A program made the translations under genes and the position numbers. Source: Leptolyngbya sp. BL-A-14 (GTDB lineage Bacteria; Cyanobacteriota; Cyanobacteriia; Leptolyngbyales; Leptolyngbyaceae). From it: a stretch of DNA of 64,000 nucleotides. Position 1 is the first letter of the stretch, and every line of letters begins with the position of its first letter. The stretch is from assembly GCA_041937185.1 (NCBI GenBank), contig CP166621.1, positions 2,324,571 through 2,388,570 on the forward strand, in the 5' to 3' direction. The notes under the pieces are model-generated. The model was not told where the DNA came from. It worked only from the letters and a program-made list of their open reading frames with translations, and did no database searches. This document shows, piece after piece, positions 3,523 to 59,653 of this stretch.

Positions 3523-3637
3523 TTAGTCAGTTTTAAAGCCTTCGGCATGGCTTCGCTAGAGGAGTTGGTTTTTAGTTTTTAGCTAGAACAAGCGCTGCCT
3601 TTTCTCTCCTTCTAACAACTAACAACCAAAAACCCTC

Positions 3638-3676
3638 CTGCCCTCTGCCTTCTGCCCTCTGCCTTCTGCCTTCCTC
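3638..3676. repeat. STRR-like heptamer tract CTGCC(T/C)T; reverse complement of the GGCAGAR tracts at 54.8 and 57.4 kb
   Basis: ctgccctctgccttctgccctctgccttctgccttc. Confidence 0.7.
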
Positions 3677-10587: not shown

Positions 10588-13452
10588 TTATCTCTTTACT
10601 CCATCGTAATTAGTGCCTCGTGAAGCCTGCGATTGAGTCGAACACTCTAGGGGCAATTGAACGTTGTTGTACAGTTTCGTTCCACTAGTTACCTTATTAA
10701 AGTAAATCTTAGGGTTCTTTCCTTTGAGTCCAAAATTCAAACTGATTGTCCCCCCAGGAGCTAAGTGCCGTGGCTTTAAGAACGTAGAGGGTTGGTTCGA
10801 TTTCCTCGGAGGCTGTGGTTTTCCGGACCTGCTCGAGGGCCGTAGTTTTTGGAGCATGCTTAAAGGGTTGCCGAGAACCCAGCTCCGTTGCGAGGAGGAC
10901 ACATTGTTCTCCCCGTCTTTCCTCAAGGTAGAAGATGAGGTTGGAGCTAGTTGCTTCGAAGAAGACTGATCTTTTGGTGAAGACGAATCACGCATCGGAA
11001 CACGGCAAATATCGTTCTGATAGATTCGATTAATCATCATCAATTTGCTCAAATCATAATAGTGTTTTGAACCATTAAATAGAGTAAAAAACTGCTCGTC
11101 TTTTGGTCTTTTCTTAAGGTCAAGCGTTAGATTTGTAATGTCTTCTCCAGTTGGAAGATCTTTTAAGGTAATGATGTAGCCGGATCTTTTCGTGTTTTTA
11201 GTGTCATCATTCTTAGTATCGTCTATCGCCAGTAGAATATTTTCGAACGTTTGATCTTGGTTGGCCACAAAGTCGATACCCAAAGACTTAATCAGACTTC
11301 GATCTGATTGATTACCTTTATTTTGATCAACCTCAATCTGTTCATCTTTATCAAAATGAATCTTCAGCCCCTTAGATGGCACACTGCCATCCTTTGGTTG
11401 AATACCTTCTACACTTGCTTTTGGTCGAATATCTTCTACACTTAACAAAAAGCCTGAGCCAGTCAAAAAGAAGGTAGAAGTATTTTTTTCTGTAGGGTTC
11501 GAAGATTTGCTAGTGATAGCATTGATGACAATCTTTTCATGCAAAGTGGTTTGCTCTTTATTGCTAGAGGTCTCGTTATTGCCAGCTATCTCATCAAGAG
11601 AAAAGTCCTTAACTAAATCATCTTGAGGGATAGAAGCAGTCGTTTTTGATTCTATATACTCCCGCAGTTCCTCAGTCCTATCTCTAAAAGCTTTTTTAAC
11701 TTTATTAGCTGTCTTTTGGTCTAGTTTTTTGAATTTTACGTCTTTTTCCAGCGCAGTCTGATATTCCAGCACAGTTGGGTATTCGTCTAGAGAAGTCTTC
11801 TTAAGGTCATTTCTTGCAGTTACTATCATCTCCGCAATCTTACCAGATATTTCTTCAAAGTCGGGGATATGATCGTTTGAGTCGTGATATTTGGTACTAT
11901 CTTTTAGTTGTGGAATCGACGGAGTCTTTTTTTGTAAATCTAAAGCATCTGTAATTTGTTTTTTATAATTCTCCTCAACCTGTTTTATATCTTCTCTAGC
12001 TTGTGATATGCCTGGTCTTGATGGAATTCTCATTACTATTTCAGCAATCTCTTTGTTAGTCTCGCCGAGCTTTTTTAAATCGATTCCAGTTTTAGGGACG
12101 CTAGTTTCAGGGTCTTTTATGCTATTTTGTCTATCGACTAATGCCTGAACTAACGAATCAAAAAGTCCCCCTATCCTTGAGTTATCACTATCGACTTTCT
12201 CTAGGTTACTTTCACGTGGCTCTGACGAAATTTGAAGTTGTCCTTCGGTTATATTGAATTCAACAGTATCTGAGTCTTGGCGCAAGGGGAATTTGAAGTA
12301 TTGCCCTTTAGGAAGGTCACGAAGAGAGAGTGGAAGCAGATCAATTTTGTCACCCTTTATACCACTATAAGTAATAGAGGAATCAGGAATACCTCCAGGT
12401 GTGTATGTCCATTCATAGTCGCTGGGTTCTGAAGTTGGAGAAGATGAAGGTGTTGCGGCAGTTGGAGAAGATGAAGGTGTTGCGGCAGTTGGAGACGATG
12501 AGGGTGTTGCTAGAGGTTGAGACTGTTTAGGCGTAGAAGATTTTGGCGATGCTGCAGTTGGAGAAGATGAAGGTGTTGCTGGAGGTTGGGATTGTTTAAG
12601 CGTAAACGTCACATAGCCTACTGTTTTAGGAGAATTGCTATCGTACACAGCTACCTGGTATGAACGATTCCACCACATTGGGCCCTTAATCGCTGTTGGC
12701 ACGAGAGTATGTCCGTCGGTAAGGCGACCTGTGTCATCAACTTTATAAACGCCCATCGTGTAGTACTCTTTGCGCTTTTGCATCGATTCAATGAGCAGTC
12801 CCAAAATCTCACCTGGCGACTGCTTGCGGATGGCTTTTGCCTCCTCTGATAGTTCATCCAGGCTTTGCAACGCAGAGTAGTAGGCAATATAGTTTTGTAT
12901 CGCACGGTTATTGTCAATTTCAACCGCCTTGGTTGCTCCCGGTTGAAAGGCTGCCGGAATCGATCTTCCCTTAAATGGTTGCCCTAAGAAGAGGCGTAAA
13001 CTGGCGATCGCCATCCCCTCGCATGCGCCCTCCTGGGTAATACTGTTTAGCTGCTTTGTTCGCCATGCGAGGGCGCTAGCGGTTAGAACACAAGTGTGGG
13101 GATTATCCACAATGAAGGTTCCCGGAAAGCAAACCGCGTCGGGCCCAAACATTTGAATCATATCCTCTGCTGTCAGAGAACCGTCTTCGAACTCTAGTTG
13201 CACCTCTTTTTTTTGATTTTGCTCCGTTGCGTTTTGAATCGCTTTCACTACATCGCCATTGTGAAACTTGAAGCCGTTTACGTTAGGATCAAAACCAATG
13301 TTGTATGTCGGATGATGCCACCATAAAACACTAAAAAACACCAAAAGACTGAGCAACACAGCACCAATCATTTGTTTGTGGGGAAGCAACCAAGTGGCAA
13401 CTAAATGTTTGCGACGATTCATAGCACCAACTAGCTGTTTGTAAGGATTCAT
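10588..13452 (-). CDS. large hypothetical membrane-anchored protein: N-terminal TM, Cys-containing domain, Pro/Thr/Ser-rich linker, and a Lys/Asp/Glu-rich C-terminal region encoded by AT-rich DNA
   Basis: 954-aa uninterrupted ORF; PT-repeat linker (…ATPSSSPTAATPSSSPTAATPSSSPT…); GC drops sharply from about 12.4 kb to the stop codon. Confidence 0.7.
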   Translation of the reverse strand: MNPYKQLVGAMNRRKHLVATWLLPHKQMIGAVLLSLLVFFSVLWWHHPTYNIGFDPNVNGFKFHNGDVVKAIQNATEQNQKKEVQLEFEDGSLTAEDMIQMFGPDAVCFPGTFIVDNPHTCVLTASALAWRTKQLNSITQEGACEGMAIASLRLFLGQPFKGRSIPAAFQPGATKAVEIDNNRAIQNYIAYYSALQSLDELSEEAKAIRKQSPGEILGLLIESMQKRKEYYTMGVYKVDDTGRLTDGHTLVPTAIKGPMWWNRSYQVAVYDSNSPKTVGYVTFTLKQSQPPATPSSSPTAASPKSSTPKQSQPLATPSSSPTAATPSSSPTAATPSSSPTSEPSDYEWTYTPGGIPDSSITYSGIKGDKIDLLPLSLRDLPKGQYFKFPLRQDSDTVEFNITEGQLQISSEPRESNLEKVDSDNSRIGGLFDSLVQALVDRQNSIKDPETSVPKTGIDLKKLGETNKEIAEIVMRIPSRPGISQAREDIKQVEENYKKQITDALDLQKKTPSIPQLKDSTKYHDSNDHIPDFEEISGKIAEMIVTARNDLKKTSLDEYPTVLEYQTALEKDVKFKKLDQKTANKVKKAFRDRTEELREYIESKTTASIPQDDLVKDFSLDEIAGNNETSSNKEQTTLHEKIVINAITSKSSNPTEKNTSTFFLTGSGFLLSVEDIRPKASVEGIQPKDGSVPSKGLKIHFDKDEQIEVDQNKGNQSDRSLIKSLGIDFVANQDQTFENILLAIDDTKNDDTKNTKRSGYIITLKDLPTGEDITNLTLDLKKRPKDEQFFTLFNGSKHYYDLSKLMMINRIYQNDICRVPMRDSSSPKDQSSSKQLAPTSSSTLRKDGENNVSSSQRSWVLGNPLSMLQKLRPSSRSGKPQPPRKSNQPSTFLKPRHLAPGGTISLNFGLKGKNPKIYFNKVTSGTKLYNNVQLPLECSTQSQASRGTNYDGVKR

Positions 13453-13540
13453 ATCGTCTCCACGAGCGTATTTTATTGCCAGTCTAAAGAGCCATTACGA
13501 CCTAAAAGTGAATCGTGCTTAGAGTCTATTTTCTTGTTAG

Positions 13541-16414
13541 TTATTTCTTGTTGACTATCGTTTTGATGTCATTGCAGAACTTACCCTCTGCTGAGTGCGG
13601 GTTGGCGACGAAATAGTCTTGTAGCCAATGGCAGCTACGCGCAAGCAAGAGATCAGGGTCTAGTTCCCATAGGATGAGGGTTTTATCATTACTAGCTGAG
13701 ACGATCGCTTCACCATTGGGGCTAAAGCCGATACTCTGCACGACGTCGCGATGCCCTTTGTATGTGCTGAGGAGTTGTCCATTCTGGCGACTCCAAAAGC
13801 GTACTGTACCGTCTACCCCTGCAGAGGCAAGGATTTGACCATCGGGGCTAAAACTGACATCAAGCACCTGTCCGAAATGTCCTCTCAAGATCTGTAACTC
13901 TCGCCCATCAGAGACCTTCCAGAGTTTGATTGTGCTGTCCTCACTACTAGAAGCAAGGGTTTGACCATCCGGGCTAAAACTGAGGTTCCAAATCTCACCC
14001 CTGTGCCCTTTAAAGGTGCGAATCTCGTGTCCATTCAACTGCCACAGCTTGATTGTGGTGTCATCGCTGGCTGAAGCCAACATTGTGCCATCGGGGCTAA
14101 AGCGAACACCCTCAACCTGGGCAGTGTGTCCTTTAAAGGTGCTCAGTACCTGTCCTTCTAAGTTCCAAAGTTTGACCGTTTTATCTTCCCCCCCGGAGGC
14201 GATCTTCTTTCCGTCTGGACTAAAGCTCACGCTCCAAACACCTCCCTTGTGCCCCTTCAAGGTTTTTAATACCTGGCCATCACTACTCCAAAGTTTAATG
14301 GTGCCATCGCCACTGGCAGATGCCATCGTTTGACTATTTGGGCTAAAGCTCACAGAGACAACCCGTTCTTGGTGCCCCTTCAGGGTCTTCAGAGCTTGAC
14401 CGCGAGCGTTCCACAGTTTAAGCGTCTTATCCTTACTGGCTGAAGCAATCAGCCTACTATCAGGGCTAAAGCTGACGCTGCGAACTTCGTCGCTATGCCC
14501 TTTAAGCATTTGGAGCGCTTGCTGATGCAAATTCCAAACTTGCACATTGCCATCGGTGCCAACCGATGTCAACGTTCGTCCATCGGGGCTAAAACTGGCA
14601 CTCTTCGCCGCATTGCTATGACCTCTAAAGGTTCCCAGCATCTTTCCATCCAGCGCTTGTAATCGAATGGTGCCGTCATCTCCTGTGGCAGCAATCACTT
14701 TGCTGTCGGGACTAAAATTCACCCCCTCAATTGGAGCCATGAATCCTATCAGCGTTCTCAACGGGACTCCATTTACGCTCCAAAGCTTGACGGTTTTATC
14801 CTTGCTGCCAGAAGCAATCCATTTGCCATCGGGGCTAAAGCAGACGGTGTAAACAGCATCACTGTGAGCCGGGATTATTTTCAAGACCTTTCCGTTTAAC
14901 CGCCATAGACGGATGGTTCTGTCATCACTGCCAGAAACTAGCGTTTGCCCGTTGGGGCTAAAGCTGACACTTTCAACTAAATCACGATGCCCTTTCAAAG
15001 TGCGGATTGGCTGCCCAAAGGACTGAGGTGATCCCGTACGCTCGACTGCCCAGAGACGGATGGTGTGATCGGCACTGGCCGATGCAAGGGTTTTACCGTT
15101 GGGGCTAAAACTCACGCTATATACTGTATCGGTATGCCCCTTCAGCGTTTTCAGCAAGGTGCCATCCGCCCTCCAGAGTTTGATGGTATTGTCCTTGCTT
15201 CCCGAGGCCAGCATCTGTCCGTTGGGGCTGAAGCTCACACTGCGAATTTCATCGCGATGCCCTGGTAGCGATCGTAGTTTTTGACCCTTACGGTTCCATA
15301 GTTCGATCGTTTGATCGCCAGCTACTGCCAGCGTTTGCCCATCGGGGCTCAAGCTAACGCTATACAAACGAGCGTTTTGCCCTGTGAAGGAGTTCTGTTG
15401 ATGTACGCCATACACCACCTGCTGTAGGGCACTAATGGCTCGCATGCGGGTGTCTGGGGTGATCTTGTCTTCCCATTGTTTGAGCTGTTGCCCCATGCGG
15501 ATGCTACCCAACAGCGCTTCGATGTCTAACCCTGACTTCAGGTTGCTTTCCACAATTAAGCTTTGGGCAGTAATCGTTTCATTGGCAGACTGTTTTTCGG
15601 CAATGGCCTTCGCTTCAATGGCTTCGTGTCGTTGTTGCAACGCCATGATGGTTGAGCCAATGGCCATTAGCAAGCCAGCCGAAACACAGACCAGTGCAGT
15701 TCTCTGTAGCCTATTTCTGGCTTTTTGCCGTGCCGTTTCAGCTTGACGGCTGGCACTGATGTAAGCGCCATGCAGTTTCGTCGGTTCCGGTTGTTTAGCC
15801 GTCTGTTGAAACATCCATTGCGCGGCTTCCTCCAGGTCGTCACCCTGCAGCAAACAGCTCTCATTGCGCTGCTTCTTCTCCCACTCGATCGCCCGCATCA
15901 GTAATCGAGCATGCTTACGGGCATGATCCAGGTCGGTTTCGATCGCCTTCAACAGCTTTTGGAATGCTTGATTGAAATCGTCCGTCTCCCGAAAAAACAG
16001 CCAGTTATGACGGCTAATCGCAGGATGGATATCTGCCGCACTAAACCCTTCTCGCCAGACCAGCGGCACCAACCGCTTCTGGTGGGCAACAGCATAATCC
16101 ACCTCCTGACGGCACACCTCCGAGGCGATCGAATCAGGACTGATCACAAAGACAAAGGTACTGGCGGCTTCAATGCCTGCTTTAATGGCTTCCCACCAAT
16201 CCTCAGTGGGTTGAATATCGTCCCAATCAATCCACGGATCATGGTTGTGTTTGCGAAACGTCGCATCCAGGATACGCACGAAGTCTATGTCTCTACGACA
16301 GTAAGAGATAAAGATTTCATTGACTTGTTCGCCTACTCTTTGATCGTCTACGCCAGTGGCAGATGCTGTAGCTCGATCGTTGTTAGTCACAGAGGAACCA
16401 TCTGTAACCGTCAT
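13541..16414 (-). CDS. TIR domain-TM helix-WD40 repeat (about 14 repeats) protein
   Basis: N-terminal TIR (FISYCRRD…FVISPDSIASEVCRQEV, conserved Glu present); hydrophobic segment RTALVCVSAGLLMAIGSTIMAL; many GH…WD units; ATG at 16414 preceded by GAGGGG. Confidence 0.85.
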   Translation of the reverse strand: MTVTDGSSVTNNDRATASATGVDDQRVGEQVNEIFISYCRRDIDFVRILDATFRKHNHDPWIDWDDIQPTEDWWEAIKAGIEAASTFVFVISPDSIASEVCRQEVDYAVAHQKRLVPLVWREGFSAADIHPAISRHNWLFFRETDDFNQAFQKLLKAIETDLDHARKHARLLMRAIEWEKKQRNESCLLQGDDLEEAAQWMFQQTAKQPEPTKLHGAYISASRQAETARQKARNRLQRTALVCVSAGLLMAIGSTIMALQQRHEAIEAKAIAEKQSANETITAQSLIVESNLKSGLDIEALLGSIRMGQQLKQWEDKITPDTRMRAISALQQVVYGVHQQNSFTGQNARLYSVSLSPDGQTLAVAGDQTIELWNRKGQKLRSLPGHRDEIRSVSFSPNGQMLASGSKDNTIKLWRADGTLLKTLKGHTDTVYSVSFSPNGKTLASASADHTIRLWAVERTGSPQSFGQPIRTLKGHRDLVESVSFSPNGQTLVSGSDDRTIRLWRLNGKVLKIIPAHSDAVYTVCFSPDGKWIASGSKDKTVKLWSVNGVPLRTLIGFMAPIEGVNFSPDSKVIAATGDDGTIRLQALDGKMLGTFRGHSNAAKSASFSPDGRTLTSVGTDGNVQVWNLHQQALQMLKGHSDEVRSVSFSPDSRLIASASKDKTLKLWNARGQALKTLKGHQERVVSVSFSPNSQTMASASGDGTIKLWSSDGQVLKTLKGHKGGVWSVSFSPDGKKIASGGEDKTVKLWNLEGQVLSTFKGHTAQVEGVRFSPDGTMLASASDDTTIKLWQLNGHEIRTFKGHRGEIWNLSFSPDGQTLASSSEDSTIKLWKVSDGRELQILRGHFGQVLDVSFSPDGQILASAGVDGTVRFWSRQNGQLLSTYKGHRDVVQSIGFSPNGEAIVSASNDKTLILWELDPDLLLARSCHWLQDYFVANPHSAEGKFCNDIKTIVNKK

Positions 16415-16678
16415 AGCGTCACCCCTCAAGCAGCACAAACGTGATTTCAGCGGATTCTAGTCGAGTACACCCTGATCTTGTAGGGAAGGGTGTCGAGTAT
16501 CAAGTATGGTGAATGCAAATGAAATTAACAGAGTGTTTTGGGACGGTGCTAATGTTCGACGTTGGGATCGTGGTTTTAACTGTCACACAAACTTACCTAA
16601 GCAATTTACTTTACTTAGAATATATCTGACAAGTTAAAATTGTTATCCGAATCCTTGAGCTTTACGGGCTTGACACTC

Positions 16679-31781: not shown

Positions 31782-31846
31782 GGGAGTAGGGGGATGGGGG
31801 ATAGGAGATGGGAGTAAGGGGAGGGGGTGGGGGATGGCAGGTGCAG
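31782..31846. repeat. STRR-like G-rich heptamer tract (GGGGATR family)
   Basis: gggagtagggggatgggggataggagatgggagtaaggggagggggtgggggatgg. Confidence 0.7.
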
Positions 31847-49079: not shown

Positions 49080-50420
49080 ATGGCTGCCAAAAAATATCAC
49101 GATGATCCTCAGGAGCGCTCATTGCCGAGCCGCTCTGCTAAAGCCCGCATTAAACCAGCCGCATCAAAAGGGCGATCCCAACCGTTAAAAGCTGGCAAGC
49201 CAAGGCTGTCACGCGAAGCAAGTACGGATGATTTTCACGTGGATAAACCGCGCCCAGCCCGTAGAGCAAAGGCTGACGGTAGAGCGTCTGAATTTAAATC
49301 TGACCGGGATACCTCTAGACCCCGGATCAGAAGAGGTACGAGCGATCGACCTAACCGCGATCGACCTATAAGAAGTAATGGCGATCAACCCACCGATGAT
49401 CGGCCTATGGGCACCCCGCATGCCTCCCGTGAACCAAGAACCGATTGGAAACCCGATCGCGCCCGTCCCTCTCGCGATGGCGATTCGGTGCAGCCAAGAC
49501 GGCGCTCAGGGCACTCCTCCCGACACGAAGGTTCATCTCATTCGCGCGGCCAGCGCTCCTTGCCACCCGTAGCATCAAGACCACCGGCTGATGCAGGGTC
49601 TGATCCCGCGAATGCAGTACCCACGTCTTTTGAAGAAGCTGATTTAATCTACGGTCGTCATCCTGTTTTGGCAGCATTGGAGAGTCAGCGATCGCTCAAC
49701 CGCATCTGGATTACCGCCAAGCTCCGCTACGATCACCGCTTTCACGATTTGCTGGGTCAGGCAAAAGCCAATGGCACCGTCATTGATGAAGTGGAGCCAC
49801 AGCGGCTCGACCAATTGACCTTTCGGGCGAATCACCAGGGTGTGGTGGCTCAAGTCGCACCGCATGAGTACATGGAGCTAGCAGATTTGATCGAGCAGGC
49901 CAAAGCGGCTTCTGATCAACCGGTGTTAGTCGTGGCGGACAGCATTACTGATCCCCATAATTTGGGAGCCATCATCCGTAGTGCCGAAGCGCTTGGAGCA
50001 CAGGGTTTGGTGATCCCGCAACGCAGAGCCGTTGGGGTTACCTCTACCGTTGTCAAAGTTGCTGCCGGAGCACTGGAGACCTTCTCCGTCGCGCGCGTGG
50101 TTAACCTGGGCCGTGCATTAGAAGAACTTAAGAGCGCTGGTTTTTGGATTTACGGCACCGCTAGCAACGGCAGTCAGGCACTGCATACCGTCCAGTTTTC
50201 GGGCCCTGTCGTACTGGTCGTAGGAGCAGAAGGGGATGGGCTCAGTATGCTGACCCAACGCGCTTGCGATAGCCTGGTTTCCATACCCTTGGCCGGGCAT
50301 ACACCCAGCTTAAATGCGTCTGTAGCAACAGGTATGGCGCTGTATGAAATCTTCCGTCAACGGTGGTCGAACACCTTACATCTGGATAAGGTGGAGAAGG
50401 CCGTGCGGTTGAAAAAGTAA
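49080..50420 (+). CDS. rlmB: 23S rRNA (guanosine-2'-O)-methyltransferase RlmB (SpoU/TrmH family) with a long Arg/Asp/Pro-rich N-terminal extension
   Basis: C-terminal SpoU methylase motifs (…[16 protein letters not shown]…, …[11 protein letters not shown]…); the N-terminal 190 aa are low-complexity. Confidence 0.85.
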
Positions 50421-50882: not shown

Positions 50883-52732
50883 TTAATCTTCGATTGTCTC
50901 AACTAGAAACCAATTTCCCGCACTATTTAGCTGCCCTGACACAGTCAGAGTTTGATTAGAATCTTTTGTCGCGAGATAGGCGTTGATGGCTGAGTCAAGA
51001 GTGACCAGATGAACGATCAGCGTTTTGAGTGTGAACGGTTCCACGATTTCTATCGTGTATGTTTGCTCGTCTAAGCGCTGAAAGATCCCAGTCACGGCTG
51101 GTTGAAGGGTGCTATCGCCCTTTGTAGAGACCAAAGGACTCTGGGAGCGATCGCGCTTAAGTTGCCGCGTGGGGCAATTGCCATCCACTGGGTAGGCTTC
51201 TGGATGATCAAGGTAGTAGTGCTGCCAGTAAAGCCAATCGGGGTCATGTAGGGGAGAATTCAGCAAGGGAATGACCGCAGCAGGGGCGATCGTATCGCTC
51301 AGGAGTGCTTCCTGGAGCGATCGCACGTCTAGCTCCCGTGGCTGGCAACCTTGTTCTATACAAAGTGCTGCTGCCATCCCCGCTGCCTGCCCGATTCCCA
51401 AAACAAGTGGCTGTAACCGTGTGGCACCGTTCGCCATGTGGGACACAGAGATATTCTTTTCACACGCCAAAAGTCCATCTGTTTTAACGGGTACGAGCGA
51501 TCGATAGGGGATCGTGAACGGCGTACCTGTCCAGCGTCCACCCCAGCGCATTGACTTCGGCTTGAGTGTGATGTCTCCACTGGGGTAGTGATGGTCATTA
51601 GCGTAGTTGCCGATCGCGATCGCGTCACAAACATTTTCTGCTTGCAGGCAGCCCTGACCCGAGATGACGATCGGCAGCGACGCAACACATCCATTGTGAA
51701 TTGGCAGAATGTCTTGCTCGCGCACAGTCGTTAGCCCACGCAACCGCCGACTTTCCCGGTAATACGGGTGCAGCGCATACGCCCCACCCCCAGCTTTTCC
51801 CTAGCCCCTGTCCCCTGTCCCCCATCCCCTTCAGGAAACACGTCCTCTGCCAACCCATACCGCTGACCAAGCTGCTGCTGAATCAGGCGTGCAAAACTTT
51901 GTGTATGCCACCGCGCTTCTTGCAAAAATTCTCTCCGTTTTTTCTTAGAGAGAAGACGGTCAACCCCTTCGCCATAATCATTACCGTGGATCGGCCAGTT
52001 GATCATGAAGCGGTTGCCGGGTAAGCGTCCGTAGTTAAGAAAGCGATCGCCCCCGTACTGATCCCAGGCTCCTTGAAAGCGATCGGGCGCATCGTTGGGT
52101 GGTGCGGGGATCTCAGGCGCTGTTTCACCTTCACCGTAGTCCTGCATCACAACGACCCATGTTGGAGCTTGCACTGGGTACTGCTGGGTCAGTTGGTTGG
52201 CACTAACGGGCGCGCTGGGTTCGTTAAACTCTGACTGCAACTCCCAACCCCAACGGTGTGGCACTTCGCCAAGAGCTAATAGGTCGCCCAGTTCTGTCCC
52301 ATCGATTGTTATTTGAGCGCTGATCGTTACCGTTTGGAAGCGAACACCACGAATACGATCCCCAGTCCAAAGAACCTCTTCTGGTGTTTGTCCAGCAATC
52401 CACTGAAGATTTGGCAGTGCGGCCACCCAATCTGCAAAAATCTGCGCGCCAACACGTGGATCGTAGGTGAAGAAGCTGACCCAGCCGTGATCCAATCCTT
52501 CTAGCTGTCGTTGTCTGAGTTCTCGCAGAAACGCTCCCCAAAGACCAGTCTGAAAGGCAAGTAACTCATTGCCATCGGGTGCAGAGACGCCTGCACTCGT
52601 CAACATGCCACCCAACCAGCTAAATTCGCTAACGAGGATTGTCTTTGCCCCCCGTCGGGCTGCTTGAATGGCAGCGGCAGTGCCCCCCGTGCCGCCACCC
52701 ACCACCAAAACATCGGCTTTTAGTTCTTGCAT
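50883..52732 (-). pseudogene. FAD-dependent oxidoreductase split into two ORFs (52732-51731 and 51743-50883) by a short G-rich STRR-like insertion that shifts the frame
   Basis: N-terminal ORF has GGGTGG dinucleotide-binding motif and ends in a repeat-encoded tail (…EGDGGQGTGAREKLGVGR…*); the C-terminal ORF resumes in another frame with native-looking …ALHPYYRESRRLRGLTTVREQ…; repeat at 51784-51830. Confidence 0.6.
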
Positions 52733-52907
52733 TGCATCGTCACCTTAAGAAAGCTGCGGTTGCAAGCATTCGCTCGCCCGCTTCCGTAAGCAATAGGGTA
52801 ATGGTTTGTCGGGTACGATCGCGCAAATAGCGATCGTGCAAACTTTCGGGCACTCCACCGCCATAATGGAAACAACCCATCAGAATCAACGTTGTGAGAC
52901 GAAACCA

Positions 52908-53795
52908 ATGGTATTCACCGCTCAAGAGCTAGAAGCCATGATGCCTGATGCTACCCAGCTTTTGAGCGACGAGCCAGAGATGGAAAGCTCCCTTCACTAT
53001 GCTCAACTGGCGCTCCTGGTTGCTTGTCTGGAGTGGCTATGGCGTGACCAAACGGACTTTTTTATTGGTGCAAACCTTACCATCTACTTCAGCCGCCAGC
53101 AACTCCGCAACCGAGATTTTCGTGGGCCAGACTTCTTCCTTGTCAAACATACCGAGCCACGACCACGCAATGCCTGGGTGGTGTGGGAGGAAGATGGACG
53201 CTATCCTGATTTGATCATTGAGTTGCTCTCTACATCAACCGCCACTGTCGATCGCACCCTGAAGAAAGACCTGTATCAAAACCGTTTTCGGACACCAGAG
53301 TACTTTTGGTTTTCACCAGAAACGCTTGAATTCCAGGGCTTTCGACTGATAGGGCACGAATATGAAGCGATTGCTCCCAACGAGCATGGCTGGCGCTGGA
53401 GTGAAGAACTTGAACTTTACCTGGGTATAGACGCGAATCAGTTACGCTACTTCAGCGCTCAGGGTGAGAAGGTGCCAACATTAGCGGAAGCGATCGCGCA
53501 ATCAAAGTCAGAGACAGAGCAAGCAAGGGCAGAAACAGAGCAGGCAATCGCCCAGGCACTACAGGCACAACAACAACTTGAACGTGAGCGCCAAACTTTA
53601 GCACAAGCGGAGGGACAGCTCGAACAAGCTGAACAACAGCTCGAACAAACTGAGCAACAGCTCGAACAAACTGAGCAACAGCTCGAACAAACTGAGCAAC
53701 AGCTTGAGCAGGAACGGCTACAACGGCTTGAGGCTCAGCAGCGTGCCGAACGGTTGGCAGCCCGTTTAAAAGCGATGGGCATTGATCTCGATTAA
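52908..53795 (+). CDS. Uma2-family (DUF820) putative endonuclease with a C-terminal heptad coiled-coil
   Basis: PD-(D/E)xK-like Uma2 core (…DFFIGANLTIYF…PDFFLV…PDLIIELLS…); C-terminus carries (QQLEQTE)n encoded by 21-bp tandem repeats. Confidence 0.75.
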   Translation: MVFTAQELEAMMPDATQLLSDEPEMESSLHYAQLALLVACLEWLWRDQTDFFIGANLTIYFSRQQLRNRDFRGPDFFLVKHTEPRPRNAWVVWEEDGRYPDLIIELLSTSTATVDRTLKKDLYQNRFRTPEYFWFSPETLEFQGFRLIGHEYEAIAPNEHGWRWSEELELYLGIDANQLRYFSAQGEKVPTLAEAIAQSKSETEQARAETEQAIAQALQAQQQLERERQTLAQAEGQLEQAEQQLEQTEQQLEQTEQQLEQTEQQLEQERLQRLEAQQRAERLAARLKAMGIDLD

Positions 53796-54845: not shown

Positions 54846-55012
54846 GGAGGAGAAGGCAGAGGGCGGAGGGCAGAAGGCAGAGGGCAGGAGGCAGGAGGCA
54901 GGGGGAGCAGGGGGAGCAGGGGGAGCAGGGGGCTAAAGGCTAAAAGGCTGGACTACTGACTCATGCATGGTTAACTCATAACTCATAACTCATAACTCAT
55001 AACTCATAACTC
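54846..55012. repeat. composite STRR-like tract: GGCAGAR heptamers, GGGGGAGCA units, GGCTAAA units, then (AACTCAT)x5-6
   Basis: Divergent promoter region between psbZ and the CCA enzyme gene is composed almost entirely of tandem short units. Confidence 0.8.
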
Positions 55013-55025
55013 TCTCTTCCCTCCC

Positions 55026-58010
55026 ATGCATCTCATCCTCTGCCACACGACTGCTGATTTCGACACATTGGGTGCGGCTGTTGGGCTGACGCGCTTACAG
55101 GCGGGTGCGCGTATTGTGCTGGCGGGTGGGACGCATGCTGCTGTAGGCGATTTTTTAGCCCTGCATCGGGATGAGTATGGTTTGATCGAGCGTCGATCGG
55201 TGAAGGCAGCCCAAATTCAAGCGATCGCTGTTGTGGATACGCAGTTTCGCGATCGGCTAGGCAAGGTTGCAGAATGGCTTGATTTACCAGATGTCGAAAT
55301 TTCGGTTTATGACCATCACCTCGGTGTGGAGTCTGACATTCAAGCAACCAAACGCCAGATTGAAGCTGTTGGGGCAACGACAACCCTGATTGTAGAGAGC
55401 CTTCAGGCGCAACAGGTAACGCTCACGATCGCCGAAGCGACCGTCATGGCATTGGGCATTCACGTGGATACGGGTTCGCTAACCTTTGACCAGACGACGG
55501 CACGGGATGCCAAAGCCTTGGCATGGTTGCTGGAGCAAGGAGCCAATTTGAGAACGATCGCTCATTATGCCGATCCAGGTCTTCCAACGGAGCTGCAGCC
55601 GTTGTTGACGACAGCCCTCAAGGCAATGCAAACCGAAACTGTGCACGGTAGAACAGTCAGTTGGGTGATGTTGACGCTGGATAGTTTTGTCCCAGCTTTA
55701 TCCAGTTTGGCATCGCACCTGATGAGCCTGACAGATAGTGATGCGTTGCTGCTGGCGGCAAACTACTGCAAGAATGCTGCCTGCCGTTCCAACCCTGAGG
55801 AGAACGACGATCGTGCCTTAACTGTCATTGGGCGATCGCGCATTGATGGCACTGATTTGAACGCCCTGTTTAGCGCGAGTGGTGGCGGCGGACACCCCCT
55901 TGCTGCGTCAGTGAATCTTCGTGCCGTTGACCCACAGGAGACCCTTGCCGAATTGGTGGCTCAATTCAAAGCACAAATTCCCCAGCCGCCAACAGCGCGA
56001 GACCTGATGTCCTCACCTGTCCGTACCATTCGGCCCGAAACTACGATCGAAGAGGCACAGCGATTGCTCCTACGCTACGGGCACTCTGGCTTGTCGGTGG
56101 TAGAAGCCAATGGGCAGCTCGTCGGTATGATTTCGCGCCGTGACCTGGATATTGCCCTCCATCATGGGTTTAGCCATGCCCCTGTTAAGGGCTACATGGC
56201 CACCAACCTCAAAACCATCACGCCCGACACCTCTCTGCCTGAAATTGAAGCGCTGATGGTGACCTATGACATCGGTCGCTTACCCGTGCTGGATCAGGAT
56301 CAGCTTGTGGGGATTGTGTCTCGTACAGACGTATTGCGCCATTTGCATCAGGCAATCAAGAGGCAGGGGACAGTGGACGGGGCGCAGGGGACAGGGAGCA
56401 GGGACACACGTGCCTTTACTTCTGACTCCACCGCAAGGGGGAAGCACGCGACACTCTTAGCTTCTGACTCCTTGCTCCTGACAACTCTGCGTCAGTGTCT
56501 TACCCCTGAACTCTGGCAGGTCTTAGCAGCAGCAGCGGCAGAAGCGGAACAGCGAGGATGGCATCTTTATCTGGTGGGGGGAGCCGTGCGAGACCTCTTG
56601 CTGGCGATCGCGGCTGGCACCGCTACAACTGGCAACCTTTTGCTGGAAGATGTGGATCTAGTGGTAGATGGGTTTCATCGGGCAGCGGATGTGGGGGCAG
56701 GGGTTGAAATGGCGCGATCACTCCAAACCCTTTATTCCGAAGCGCGTCTGGAGGTTCACGGCAAATTTCAGACGGCAGCGTTGCTGTGGCATAACGATCC
56801 GATACTCAAATCGCTCTGGGTTGATTTTGCGACGGCCCGCACAGAGTTTTATCCTTACCCAGCCGCCAACCCGGAAGTAGAAGCCAGTTCAATTCGGCAG
56901 GATCTGTATCGTCGCGATTTCACCATTAACGCGATGGCAATCCGCCTGACCCAGCCCCATGCAGGCGAACTGCTTGATTTTTTTGGTGGAATACTTGACC
57001 TGCAAGCAAAGCAGATTCGTGTTCTCCATGCCAACAGTTTTATTGAAGATCCCACGCGGATCTACCGGGCCGTGCGCTTTGCGGTGCGTCTGGGCTTCCA
57101 ATTAGACAGCCAAACAGAAGGGTACATTCGTTATGCGATCGCCAGTGGCGTTTACGCTCAGGCACATCAAAGCCACGATCGACCACCCAACAAGTCACCC
57201 ATAACCGCACCGGCTCTGCAAACTCGACTCAAGGCGGAACTCAAATACATTCTGCAATCGCCTTACTGGAAGCCTGCGCTGAAGTATCTGGCTGAGCTAG
57301 GGGCGCTGCAATGCATTCACCCAACCTTGGCGATGGATAGGGACTTGTGGCGGCAACTGCGGTTGGTTGATCGATGGTTGAGGAGGCAGGAGGCAGGAGG
57401 CAGAGGGCAAGAGGCAGAAGGCAGAAGGCAGAAGGCAGGAGTTGGGGAAGCAGGGGGAGCGGAGGGGGCAGAAGGCAGAGGGCAGAAGGCAGCTTTTATC
57501 CTTTATCCTTTATCCTTCAGCCTTCCCCCTTCATGGTTAGTGCTGCTGGAAGTGCTGCTCGCTCATCTTGCCGCCGAGTATCGCGGTCTTGTCGCAGAGA
57601 GGCTTCAGCTACCACTGGATAGTATCGAACGGTTGCAGCAGTTAGAAGTGGCTCAAACCAACCTGATGAATGCCCTGCCAACCTGTCAGCGTCCGAGCGA
57701 ACAAATTCAGCTGCTGAAGCCGTATGACCCACTGCTTTTAGCGTTGATTGCGGTGCATAGTGGACGATCGACGTCGAAGGCCGCCAACGATGTATCACCC
57801 CGTCGCAAAATCTGGCAGTATCTCACCTGCTGGAGCAACCTTAAGCCGCTCTTAGATGGGAACGATCTCAAAACAATGGGCTACAAACCCGGCCCACAAT
57901 TCAAGGCAATTCTGGATGCACTCCTAGCCGCTACCGCAGACGGCGTCATTTGTACCCGTGCTGAAGCAGAACAATACGTTGCAAAAAACTTCCCTATACG
58001 AGACAAATAG
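55026..58010 (+). CDS. multidomain CCA tRNA nucleotidyltransferase / poly(A) polymerase family protein with N-terminal DHH-DHHA1 and a CBS pair
   Basis: DHH (…VYDHH…); DHHA1 (…GGGGHPLAAS…); two CBS domains; Pol-beta NTase head (…LYLVGGAVRDLLL…RRDFTINAMAI…); two in-frame repeat-derived low-complexity insertions. Confidence 0.8.
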   Translation: MHLILCHTTADFDTLGAAVGLTRLQAGARIVLAGGTHAAVGDFLALHRDEYGLIERRSVKAAQIQAIAVVDTQFRDRLGKVAEWLDLPDVEISVYDHHLGVESDIQATKRQIEAVGATTTLIVESLQAQQVTLTIAEATVMALGIHVDTGSLTFDQTTARDAKALAWLLEQGANLRTIAHYADPGLPTELQPLLTTALKAMQTETVHGRTVSWVMLTLDSFVPALSSLASHLMSLTDSDALLLAANYCKNAACRSNPEENDDRALTVIGRSRIDGTDLNALFSASGGGGHPLAASVNLRAVDPQETLAELVAQFKAQIPQPPTARDLMSSPVRTIRPETTIEEAQRLLLRYGHSGLSVVEANGQLVGMISRRDLDIALHHGFSHAPVKGYMATNLKTITPDTSLPEIEALMVTYDIGRLPVLDQDQLVGIVSRTDVLRHLHQAIKRQGTVDGAQGTGSRDTRAFTSDSTARGKHATLLASDSLLLTTLRQCLTPELWQVLAAAAAEAEQRGWHLYLVGGAVRDLLLAIAAGTATTGNLLLEDVDLVVDGFHRAADVGAGVEMARSLQTLYSEARLEVHGKFQTAALLWHNDPILKSLWVDFATARTEFYPYPAANPEVEASSIRQDLYRRDFTINAMAIRLTQPHAGELLDFFGGILDLQAKQIRVLHANSFIEDPTRIYRAVRFAVRLGFQLDSQTEGYIRYAIASGVYAQAHQSHDRPPNKSPITAPALQTRLKAELKYILQSPYWKPALKYLAELGALQCIHPTLAMDRDLWRQLRLVDRWLRRQEAGGRGQEAEGRRQKAGVGEAGGAEGAEGRGQKAAFILYPLSFSLPPSWLVLLEVLLAHLAAEYRGLVAERLQLPLDSIERLQQLEVAQTNLMNALPTCQRPSEQIQLLKPYDPLLLALIAVHSGRSTSKAANDVSPRRKIWQYLTCWSNLKPLLDGNDLKTMGYKPGPQFKAILDALLAATADGVICTRAEAEQYVAKNFPIRDK

Positions 58011-58020
58011 CGCTTAAAAG

Positions 58021-58090
58021 CTACCACCCCATCCCCTATCCCCCATCCCCTATCCCCCATCCCCTATCCCCCATCCCTCCACCCATTCCC
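58021..58090. repeat. STRR-like heptamer tract (CCCCTAT/CCCCCAT)
   Basis: ccccatcccctatcccccatcccctatcccccatcccctatcccccatccc. Confidence 0.8.
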
Positions 58091-58156
58091 CTCCCGATCT
58101 AGCCTTTGGTGACGGCGAGACGTTAGCATGGTCACGACCTTTGGGAGCGATCGCCC

Positions 58157-59653
58157 ATGAACTTAACGGCTGGCACAGCGCTGCAACAGGGCAAATATGT
58201 CCTTGGTAACTCTTTGGCTCAAAGTGCGTTAGGGCTTACCTTTAGAGCGACTCAAGCGCGATCGCAACAGCCAGTTGTGCTGCAAACACTACGGGTTCAG
58301 CCGCAAACCGATATTGCCCATCTAAAGCGTCGGTTTATCGAGGAGGCACAGCGTTTGGCGCAATGTCAGCACCCCGGTTTAGTGCGCGTGCTGGATGTGT
58401 TTGAGGAAGGTGGGCTACCGTTTGCAGTACTGGATGATGTGGCAGGGCAGACGTTGGCGGAACGAGTACGATCGCGGGGACCGTTACCAGAAGCGGAGGC
58501 CGTACAGTATATTCGGCAGGCTGGTTCGGCGCTCAGTGTCATGCACCGCCAGGGCTTGCTTCATCGGGAGGTTAACCCAGAACACCTGATCCGTCCCAAA
58601 GGAGCGTCGTTTGTGGTGCTAGTCGGTCTTGGCATTGCCCATTATGCGGTGCTGGGTGTACCAGACAGTGCAGAAACGATATCTCCCTATGCCGCGCTTG
58701 AGCTACAGCAGCGACAGATCAATCTCACCCCTGCGGTTGACCTCTATGCGCTTGCGGGAACGCTGTACTTTTTAGTCACAGGGCAGGAACCGATCGCAGC
58801 CTTGCGCCGTACACAAACGCCTTTACGTTCGCCGCGTCAATTACAACCGCAGTTAAGCAGCGCGATCGAACAGGCCATCCTCAACGGTATGGCACTTAAC
58901 CCCTCAGAGCGACCACAAACCGTTGCAGCCTGGTTCTCGCTCCTGCCAAATCATCAACCAACGGTGCCAGGAGGAGTTCATGGCGCAGGACAACCGCGTG
59001 CGATCGACTTACCCAATCCAGTAGCATCCAACGGCTCTAGTCGCACAACTGCCCCTCCCGCACCCCCTTTAATTCCCGTAGTGGCAAGCACTCCCGTTGC
59101 ACCCACTCATGCTCCAGAAACTTATAGCCCAAACACTCATACGGTCGCAGCATCCAATCGCCCATCTCTCCCCACGCCGATGATTGCCAAAAGCCGCTTG
59201 CCTAAAGCACTGCTGCTAACCGGTGCTGTAGCGATCGCAGGGGGGGCTGGCTTGGGATTGGCACTGCGCCTGAGTGCGGCTCATGGCATTGGTCCGACGC
59301 TCTTTCAAACCCGGCAAGACTTTCCACCCGTGCAGAATTGGCCGTTACAAGCCGCTCCTGAGGAATTGTCAACCGCTCCACCACCGCCCGTAGACCCCTT
59401 GCCTATGCGCAGCTTTGCGCCTGCTCCCTTGCCCAAAGTGAGATACTCGCCCAGCCCATCACCCCAACCCGTCACGCCTGAACCTCTACCAAGCGCGACG
59501 ATCGAAGCCAGTCCCTTGCCCACGGCTAGCCCGACTATCCCTAGCGTTCAACCTTCACCCCAACCCAGTCCCGTCCCTTCGGCAGTCTTGTCTCCGCGCC
59601 CCCTTCCTTCTGTACAAACGCCTGCTAATGCTCCTGGCTTACAGCGTTTGTAG
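58157..59653 (+). CDS. Ser/Thr protein kinase-like pseudokinase with a Pro-rich C-terminal region and a predicted TM segment
   Basis: Kinase-fold order is recognisable, but the Gly-loop, VAIK Lys (here VVLQ), HRD/K (here HREVNPEH), DFG (here GLG) and APE (here ALE) positions are all substituted. Confidence 0.65.
   Translation: MNLTAGTALQQGKYVLGNSLAQSALGLTFRATQARSQQPVVLQTLRVQPQTDIAHLKRRFIEEAQRLAQCQHPGLVRVLDVFEEGGLPFAVLDDVAGQTLAERVRSRGPLPEAEAVQYIRQAGSALSVMHRQGLLHREVNPEHLIRPKGASFVVLVGLGIAHYAVLGVPDSAETISPYAALELQQRQINLTPAVDLYALAGTLYFLVTGQEPIAALRRTQTPLRSPRQLQPQLSSAIEQAILNGMALNPSERPQTVAAWFSLLPNHQPTVPGGVHGAGQPRAIDLPNPVASNGSSRTTAPPAPPLIPVVASTPVAPTHAPETYSPNTHTVAASNRPSLPTPMIAKSRLPKALLLTGAVAIAGGAGLGLALRLSAAHGIGPTLFQTRQDFPPVQNWPLQAAPEELSTAPPPPVDPLPMRSFAPAPLPKVRYSPSPSPQPVTPEPLPSATIEASPLPTASPTIPSVQPSPQPSPVPSAVLSPRPLPSVQTPANAPGLQRL

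Follow-up and report, generated by a model that had tools for sequence, protein, structure and literature searches.

Heptameric G-rich repeats are a known class of repeats in cyanobacteria, represented by the classical short tandemly repeated repetitive (STRR) heptamers alongside the repeats of Nostoc. Programmed -1 frameshift sites of the dnaX or insertion sequence (IS) type combine the slippery sequence A AAA AAG with a downstream hairpin. In Nostoc PCC 7120, Rehm et al. 2015 described GGGGA(C/T)T G-quadruplex repeats with a preference for four units (PMC4692102). Frameshifted genes may also have a technical origin: GeneTack singletons, i.e. BLAST-validated frameshifts without counterpart in homologs, are expected to be mostly sequencing errors (PMC3711429). 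Here, we have analyzed a stretch of 64,000 nucleotides (nt) of Leptolyngbya sp. BL-A-14 (contig CP166621.1, positions 2,324,571 to 2,388,570), referred to below as the window, in which a frameshift beside a G-rich heptamer array splits a gene encoding a flavin adenine dinucleotide (FAD)-dependent oxidoreductase of the PF12831 family (50883..52732, minus strand). As a single-base indel in a homopolymer, the frameshift is entirely ordinary and not new in kind, and the missing G is probably a residual deletion in the deposited assembly rather than a mutation in the organism.

The N-terminal open reading frame (ORF; 51731..52732, minus strand) encodes 333 amino acids (aa) beginning with MQELKADVLVVGGGTGGTAAA. 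It carries the dinucleotide-binding GxGxxG motif in the form GGGTGG (residues 12–17, 52682..52699, minus strand), as read from the sequence and its translation, and Rossmann-type matches were obtained at residues 1–50 with Pfam, NCBIfam and PDB. Its repeat-encoded tail, ...FPEGDGGQGTGAREKLGVGRMRCTRITGKVGGCVG (also given as ...YGLAEDVFPEGDGGQGTGAREKLGVGRMRCTRITGKVGGCVG) before the stop, finishes with 17 residues of out-of-frame read-through (VGRMRCTRITGKVGGCVG minus its shared part) up to the TAA at 51731–51733. The C-terminal fragment (50883..51800, minus strand) is an open frame of 305 codons plus stop, offset by one base from the N-terminal ORF. It runs without interruption from 51800 to the stop codon at 50883–50885, reads GKAGGGAYALHPYYRESRRLRGLTTVREQ... 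or GKAGGGAYALHPYYRESRRLRGLTTVREQDILP..., and contains the motifs GGGAYALHPYYRESRRL, GNYANDHHYP, RWGGRWTGTPFTIPY and GIGQAAGMAAAL. With a score cutoff of 27 bits, Pfam assigned both pieces to PF12831 (FAD_oxidored), the N piece to profile positions 1–291 of 416 (E 3e-54, 185 bits) and the C piece to positions 284–416 of 416 (E 2e-44, 153 bits). Since these matches cover complementary parts of the profile, the two pieces are two halves of one domain. The invariant motifs of the subfamily (GxGxxG, GGGAY-HPYYRESRR, GNY-NDHHYP, RWGGR-TGTPF-IP and GQAAG-AAA) were all found in the two fragments. The first-pass annotation had reported an N-terminal ORF with a GGGTGG motif and a repeat-encoded tail, followed in another frame by a second ORF of the same family, and had read the pair as one oxidoreductase gene split by a frameshift beside a G-rich heptamer repeat; the ORFs and the PF12831 halves establish this description.

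A search with the joined fragments recovered thousands of full-length cyanobacterial proteins of about 585–630 aa, each named only "FAD-dependent oxidoreductase". The best orthologs were P0001 (83% identity), Lyngbya sp. HA4199-MV5 (80%) and Stenomitos rutilans (79%), within an ortholog family of 600–625 aa. The gene order, consisting of DMRL synthase (ribH), Uma2, the split gene, DUF1816, a SpoU-type methylase and RNase III, is shared with the loci of three relatives (L081, L083 and L085), and this conserved neighbourhood supports the orthology. Searches of NCBIfam and PDB for a specific function gave matches confined to the N-terminal Rossmann motif. For the Stenomitos ortholog, AlphaFold gave a model of mediocre quality (mean predicted local distance difference test, pLDDT, of 64), and Foldseek with this model recovered generic two-domain flavoproteins only (template modelling scores 0.2–0.3). 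Apart from its broken frame, the gene is a standard member of its subfamily, one of the ordinary and conserved PF12831 flavoprotein genes of cyanobacteria.

The gene is not read in one uninterrupted frame, being 1 nt short in a run of Gs at 51787..51791 (minus strand; CCCCC on the plus strand). This position was obtained by alignment to an intact ortholog, the check that had been proposed along with the initial description. In a global DNA alignment of the window with the intact Stenomitos ortholog (L081), which spans 276 columns at 80% identity, the sole internal gap is of 1 nt and falls in this G run. The linker codons of L081 are CTA GAG GAC AGG GGA CAG GGG GTG GGG GAC AGG GAA AAT TTG GGC GGT GGG GCG and those of the window GAA GGG GAT GGG GGA CAG GGG ACA GGG GCT AGG GAA AAG CTG GGG G-T GGG GCG, while other relatives have CTG GGG GGC GGT or CTG GGG GGA GGA at the same place. 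From these readings, the ancestral run had six Gs where the window has five (G6, now G5), and the ancestral codons were CTG GGG GGT GGG GCG, for the residues L G G G A. The Gs of the run belong to codons of the Leu-Gly-Gly-Gly-Ala-Tyr motif, which is conserved and directly follows the heptamer array on its 3' side. Insertion of one G yields an ORF of 1851 nt and 616 aa without internal stop. The restored protein reads ...AREKLGGGAYALHPYY, to be compared with RENLGGGAY in P0004, and ...GTGAREKLGGGAYALHPYY, to be compared with ...GVGDRENLGGGAY in Stenomitos. At the protein level, the fragments meet at the linker between the conserved ...RYGLAxxxFP and (G)GAYALHPYYRESRRL. The frame change is limited upstream by a TAG of the C frame lying within the last heptamer unit (51801..51803, minus strand). 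A base missing from the neighbouring A4 run (GAAAAG) was also considered and rejected: the conserved Leu before GGGAY would become Ala, and the alignment gap lies in the G run. As the A-run placement would destroy this Leu, the G run is the site of the lesion.

Outside this position, the gene is in good order. Neither half contains further stops, and the ratio of C-half to N-half identity with orthologs is 0.82–0.87, compared with 0.77–0.94 for pairs of intact orthologs. There is no decay elsewhere in the gene, which is consistent with a very recent event or with none. The other orthologous loci, about 160, are intact and continuous in one frame. Two unrelated public assemblies have a frameshift in this same Gly-run: L166 (Logan SRR23596770, ~1880–1960), with an identical G6-to-G5 pattern, and L167 (JGI 3300041964, ~3560–3640), with one extra G, where the neighbouring ABC_tran gene of the same contig is also split (237 + 57 aa). 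These two cases make it a hot spot of assembly indels.

The repeat itself is real. Tandem Repeats Finder detected a period of 7 with 3.7 copies at 51805–51830, and with up to 3 mismatches allowed, the 18-mer GGGGACAGGGGACAGGGG occurs 10 times in the window, where 0.05 occurrences would be expected. The G-rich repeat that had initially been placed at 51784–51830 can be resolved into two elements, the heptamer array proper at 51802..51829 and the G run bearing the lesion at 51787–51791. The array (minus strand) consists, on the sense strand, of the four units GGGGATG GGGGACA GGGGACA GGGGCTA; read in frame, they contribute ..EGDGGQGTGA.. to the linker. A pattern scan requiring at least four G tracts of at least three Gs predicted that array and G run together form a G-quadruplex-type motif with seven G tracts (51782..51829, minus strand), a textbook motif of this type on the sense strand as far as its sequence goes. 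The array shares with the Nostoc PCC 7120 repeats the 7-nt period, the tracts of four Gs and exactly the preferred number of four units (PMC4692102), and related arrays are numerous in the window (among them 56364–56403, 58027–58077 and 31789–31837). However, its units are GGGGACA, GGGGATG and GGGGCTA instead of GGGGA(C/T)T, and it sits on the coding strand of an ORF, a location in which repeats of this kind were reported to be under-represented (PMC4692102). Unlike the Nostoc repeats, it is translated (DGGQGTGA), and its register is shared with a relative whose protein is 79% identical. The repeat is one of the known G-rich heptamers of cyanobacteria, and only its translation and the conservation of its register set it apart.

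The linker containing the array is collinear, codon for codon, with that of the intact Stenomitos gene: both are 42 nt long, with 14 codons and four heptamer units, and Lyngbya sp. HA4199-MV5 (L083) has a similar linker with two to three units. Since the intact Stenomitos gene has the array at this very position and with no difference in length, it is older than the split of these lineages and in frame. Across 95 distinct orthologous linkers (loci L001–L165), the segment from FP to AY varies from 2 to 51 residues. In Kamptonema (L018), the loop holds a perfect period-7 (ACCAATT)n repeat giving NYQLPIT x3, with 8 further occurrences of the unit in other parts of the 7.9-kb locus, and the loops of L001 and L088 contain GAGAGGG units. 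The loop is a tolerant site, which has repeatedly absorbed genome-specific heptamer repeats, always in frame. In the Stenomitos model, the linker (residues 302–315) has a pLDDT below 50, as do its conserved flanks, so that the model gives no information on whether the loop is disordered. The loop of Microcoleus anatoxicus (P0136) carries a long SALFPSPQGED repeat, and the contig ends inside this repeat.

On these observations, the reading frame is broken by the absence of one G from the G6 run (now G5, 51787–51791). The array did not cause the break; ancestral and in frame, it encodes a Gly-rich linker within a loop where nearly any sequence is tolerated. The history of the assembly bears on whether the loss took place in the organism. 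The chromosome was obtained from Oxford Nanopore Flongle R9.4.1 reads basecalled with Guppy sup, assembled with Flye in metagenome mode at 28x, then polished with Medaka and finally with Polypolish using Illumina reads of a xenic culture (PMC12341861). In the course of polishing, its length rose from 7,179,432 to 7,183,421 and then 7,186,627 bp (PMC12341861), which indicates that deletions dominate the assembly errors. Over the same steps, the number of coding sequences (CDS) fell from 8,402 to 7,377 and 6,233, which the authors credit to the correction of homopolymer errors splitting genes; the Illumina-only draft has 5,853 CDS on 526 scaffolds totalling 7.01 Mb (PMC12341861). By our arithmetic, the final assembly retains an excess of roughly 200 or more CDS over the Illumina draft, suggesting that some splits remain. 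The lesion resembles the R9.4.1 error splits in being a single-base deletion in a G homopolymer of an otherwise perfect gene, and thousands of such errors were likewise present in this assembly before polishing (PMC12341861). Both the class of error and its context, a G-rich multi-copy repeat where short reads would be scarce or ambiguous, fit a residual error. As with the GeneTack singletons, no homolog shares the frameshift (PMC3711429). If the deletion is an error, the cell would make a normal enzyme of 616 aa and nothing biological would be happening at the site.

Several points weigh against a residual error. The assembly was polished with short reads, so that this deletion differs from a typical R9.4.1 error in having survived both Medaka and Polypolish; either the Illumina reads failed to resolve it or it is real, and the survival of G5 could mean that these reads do support it. 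Ten other G/C runs of at least six bases are present in the window and none was seen as a frameshift site in the scan of ORF pairs, which indicates that polishing mostly worked here; one of them, the G6 run at the GGGTGG motif of the same gene, reads in frame. The candidate ORF pairs of the window tested with Pfam (20 ORFs, chosen as the more plausible among 38 listed pairs on the same strand) were ordinary neighbouring genes, a result that does not argue strongly either way. A second genome of the species was not found in the search of genomes and metagenomes, where relatives reached about 80–83% identity at most and beyond them only the source record appeared. Exact look-ups of three window proteins, made for an intact or identically broken copy, found nothing, and neither did a scan of metagenomes for the junction pattern. 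The sole match to the N-terminal fragment including its out-of-frame tail in the search with this fragment was XGV99513.1 ("MAG: Leptolyngbya sp. BL-A-14"; 333 aa, 100% identical). Less probably, the same loss of one G from G6 may be genuine, a very recent loss of function in BL-A-14, perhaps arisen in culture; the product would then be the 333-aa N-terminal fragment, without the C-terminal third of the FAD_oxidored domain. A young pseudogene would agree with the persistence of the frameshift through both polishing steps, with the absence of any other split-looking gene among the Pfam-tested pairs and with the listing of the N-terminal fragment as a protein in GenBank, and real slippage in a homopolymer beside a structure-prone G-rich tract is plausible (PMC4692102). 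It is opposed by the lack of any sign of relaxed constraint over 1.85 kb, by the intact state of the gene in about 160 relatives with conserved synteny, by a signature that matches the R9.4.1 error exactly, a deletion in a G homopolymer, and by the CDS surplus of the final assembly over the Illumina-draft prediction. On balance, we consider a residual assembly error to be the probable origin of the missing G.

Explanations that give the repeat or its surroundings an active part fare much worse. The first-pass annotation had proposed either that an STRR-like mini-insertion or a repeat expansion had created a recent pseudogene, or that the sequence has an indel in a homopolymeric G/C run; the ortholog alignments show the latter. 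Insertion of a heptamer mini-element, or gain or loss of units in the array, might have seemed attractive, since four units of 7 nt make 28 nt, which is not a multiple of three, the array lies within 11 nt of the frame change, such arrays abound in the BL-A-14 genome, and different heptamers occupy the same loop elsewhere, (ACCAATT)n in L018 and GAGAGGG in L001. Yet the whole 42-nt linker, its four units included, has a counterpart in the intact gene of Stenomitos that is homologous position for position and no different in length, and one G is the sole difference in length over the 276 aligned bases. Moreover, unit slippage cannot explain the observed frames, because the gain of one unit or the loss of two upstream of GGGGCTA would put the TAG at 51801–51803 in frame. 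A change in heptamer copy number was rejected on these two grounds. No inverted or direct repeats flank the array, neither terminal inverted repeats nor target-site duplications, and the orthologous site of L081 is occupied, so that insertion of an element similar to a miniature inverted-repeat transposable element (MITE) was also rejected. We attach next to no probability to this origin of the frameshift. Hardly any more credible is a programmed or fortuitous -1 ribosomal slip at A_AAG (GAA AAG, 51793–51798), helped by a downstream hairpin or by the G tracts, whose product would be a full-length ...AREKAGGGAY... protein. The site is similar to those of dnaX and IS elements in the -1 direction of the shift needed, in the A_AAG context of its Lys codon, located between the TAG of the C frame and the G run, and in the hairpin a few nucleotides downstream (minimum free energy -29.6 kcal/mol); it differs from them in having no tandem slippery heptamer, no conservation in orthologs and an apparently unexceptional structure. 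The zero frame is AGG GAA AAG, in which G GAA AAG does not conform to the canonical X XXY YYZ and leaves a single-codon A_AAG only. The hairpin has a z score of only -1.9, with 10 of 200 shuffled sequences as stable, and consists of the conserved codons for GGGAYALHP, which every ortholog has. According to work cited in PMC4692102, -1 shifts can be induced by RNA G-quadruplexes, but none of the about 160 orthologous loci needs a frameshift, and the Leu codon CTG conserved in orthologs would be skipped. Reversible switching is likewise very improbable. In a phase-variable contingency locus, the G run or the array would change length at high frequency and switch this gene between on and off in the population; a simple-sequence tract does lie at the frameshift site, L166 and L167 have independent frameshifts at the same Gly-run, and loss of the two units GGGGACA and GGGGCTA would also restore the frame. 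However, G5 or G6 is far below the length of known switching tracts (the GeneTack criterion for homopolymers is at least 7 nt; PMC3711429), the product is a cytoplasmic flavoprotein instead of a surface protein, the array has kept its length since the divergence from Stenomitos, and the other split genes of the L167 assembly point to errors. Only slightly less remote is a broader version, in which a genuine G5 would reflect hypermutability of the Gly-Gly-Gly run imposed by the G-quadruplex-prone tract, with a 1-nt slippage that would switch this conserved flavoprotein off, and potentially on again, or a partial -1 rescue at A_AAG, and with the independent frameshifts of L166 and L167 as support. 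A weaker component of this version, though a real one, is the repeated colonisation of one presumed surface loop of the enzyme by different genome-specific heptamers, which selection keeps in frame.

Heptamer arrays are also translated elsewhere in the window. An ORF of 994 aa with DHH, CBS and PolyA_pol domains (55026–58010, plus strand) contains two of them, at 56364–56403 and 57381–57492, in frame and in interdomain linkers, translated as ...RQGTVDGAQGTGSRD... and ...RRQEAGGRGQEAEGRRQKAGVGEAGGAEGAEGRGQKA..., respectively. The first has the unit GGGGACA, read GQGTG, as in the oxidoreductase linker. Short tandem repeats are dense just upstream of this ORF (54851–55012) and between it and the ORF at 58157–59653 (58027–58095); these clusters include AGAGGGC x8, GCAGGGGGA x4, TAACTCA x6 and CCCCATC/CCCTATC x7, and several of the repeats are motifs of the G-quadruplex type. 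The window also contains 61 HIP1 (GCGATCGC) sites.

Annotations should join XGV99513.1 and the downstream fragment into a single gene, to be corrected or flagged as frameshifted. The locus has little biological weight overall, and its use is rather as a caution, since a conspicuous repeat beside a frameshift is not necessarily its cause and hybrid-polished nanopore assemblies can keep errors at G-rich heptamer tracts. A hypervariable loop of 2–51 aa that absorbs in-frame heptamers in many lineages, like the two linkers of the 994-aa gene, extends known facts and overturns none.

Some neighbouring genes have features of their own. The SpoU-type methylase (49080–50420, plus strand) has an N-terminal extension of about 180 aa, rich in Arg, Pro, Ser and Asp and of low complexity, before its SpoU_sub_bind domain, the Pfam matches beginning at residue 189; as ortholog lengths are similar (435–439 aa), the extension seems conserved. 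On the other side, the Uma2-family protein (52806–53795, plus strand) is 329 aa long versus 161–309 aa in relatives, owing to a C-terminal extension in which a 21-nt unit is repeated in tandem almost perfectly (53615–53704, 4.3 copies), encoding EQQLEQT heptads, and which looks like a coiled coil grown through repeat expansion. Further away, at 10591–16456 (minus strand), two adjacent ORFs of about 970 aa each lie on the same strand about 49 nt apart, the upstream one encoding a multi-WD40 protein and the downstream one being without any Pfam match.

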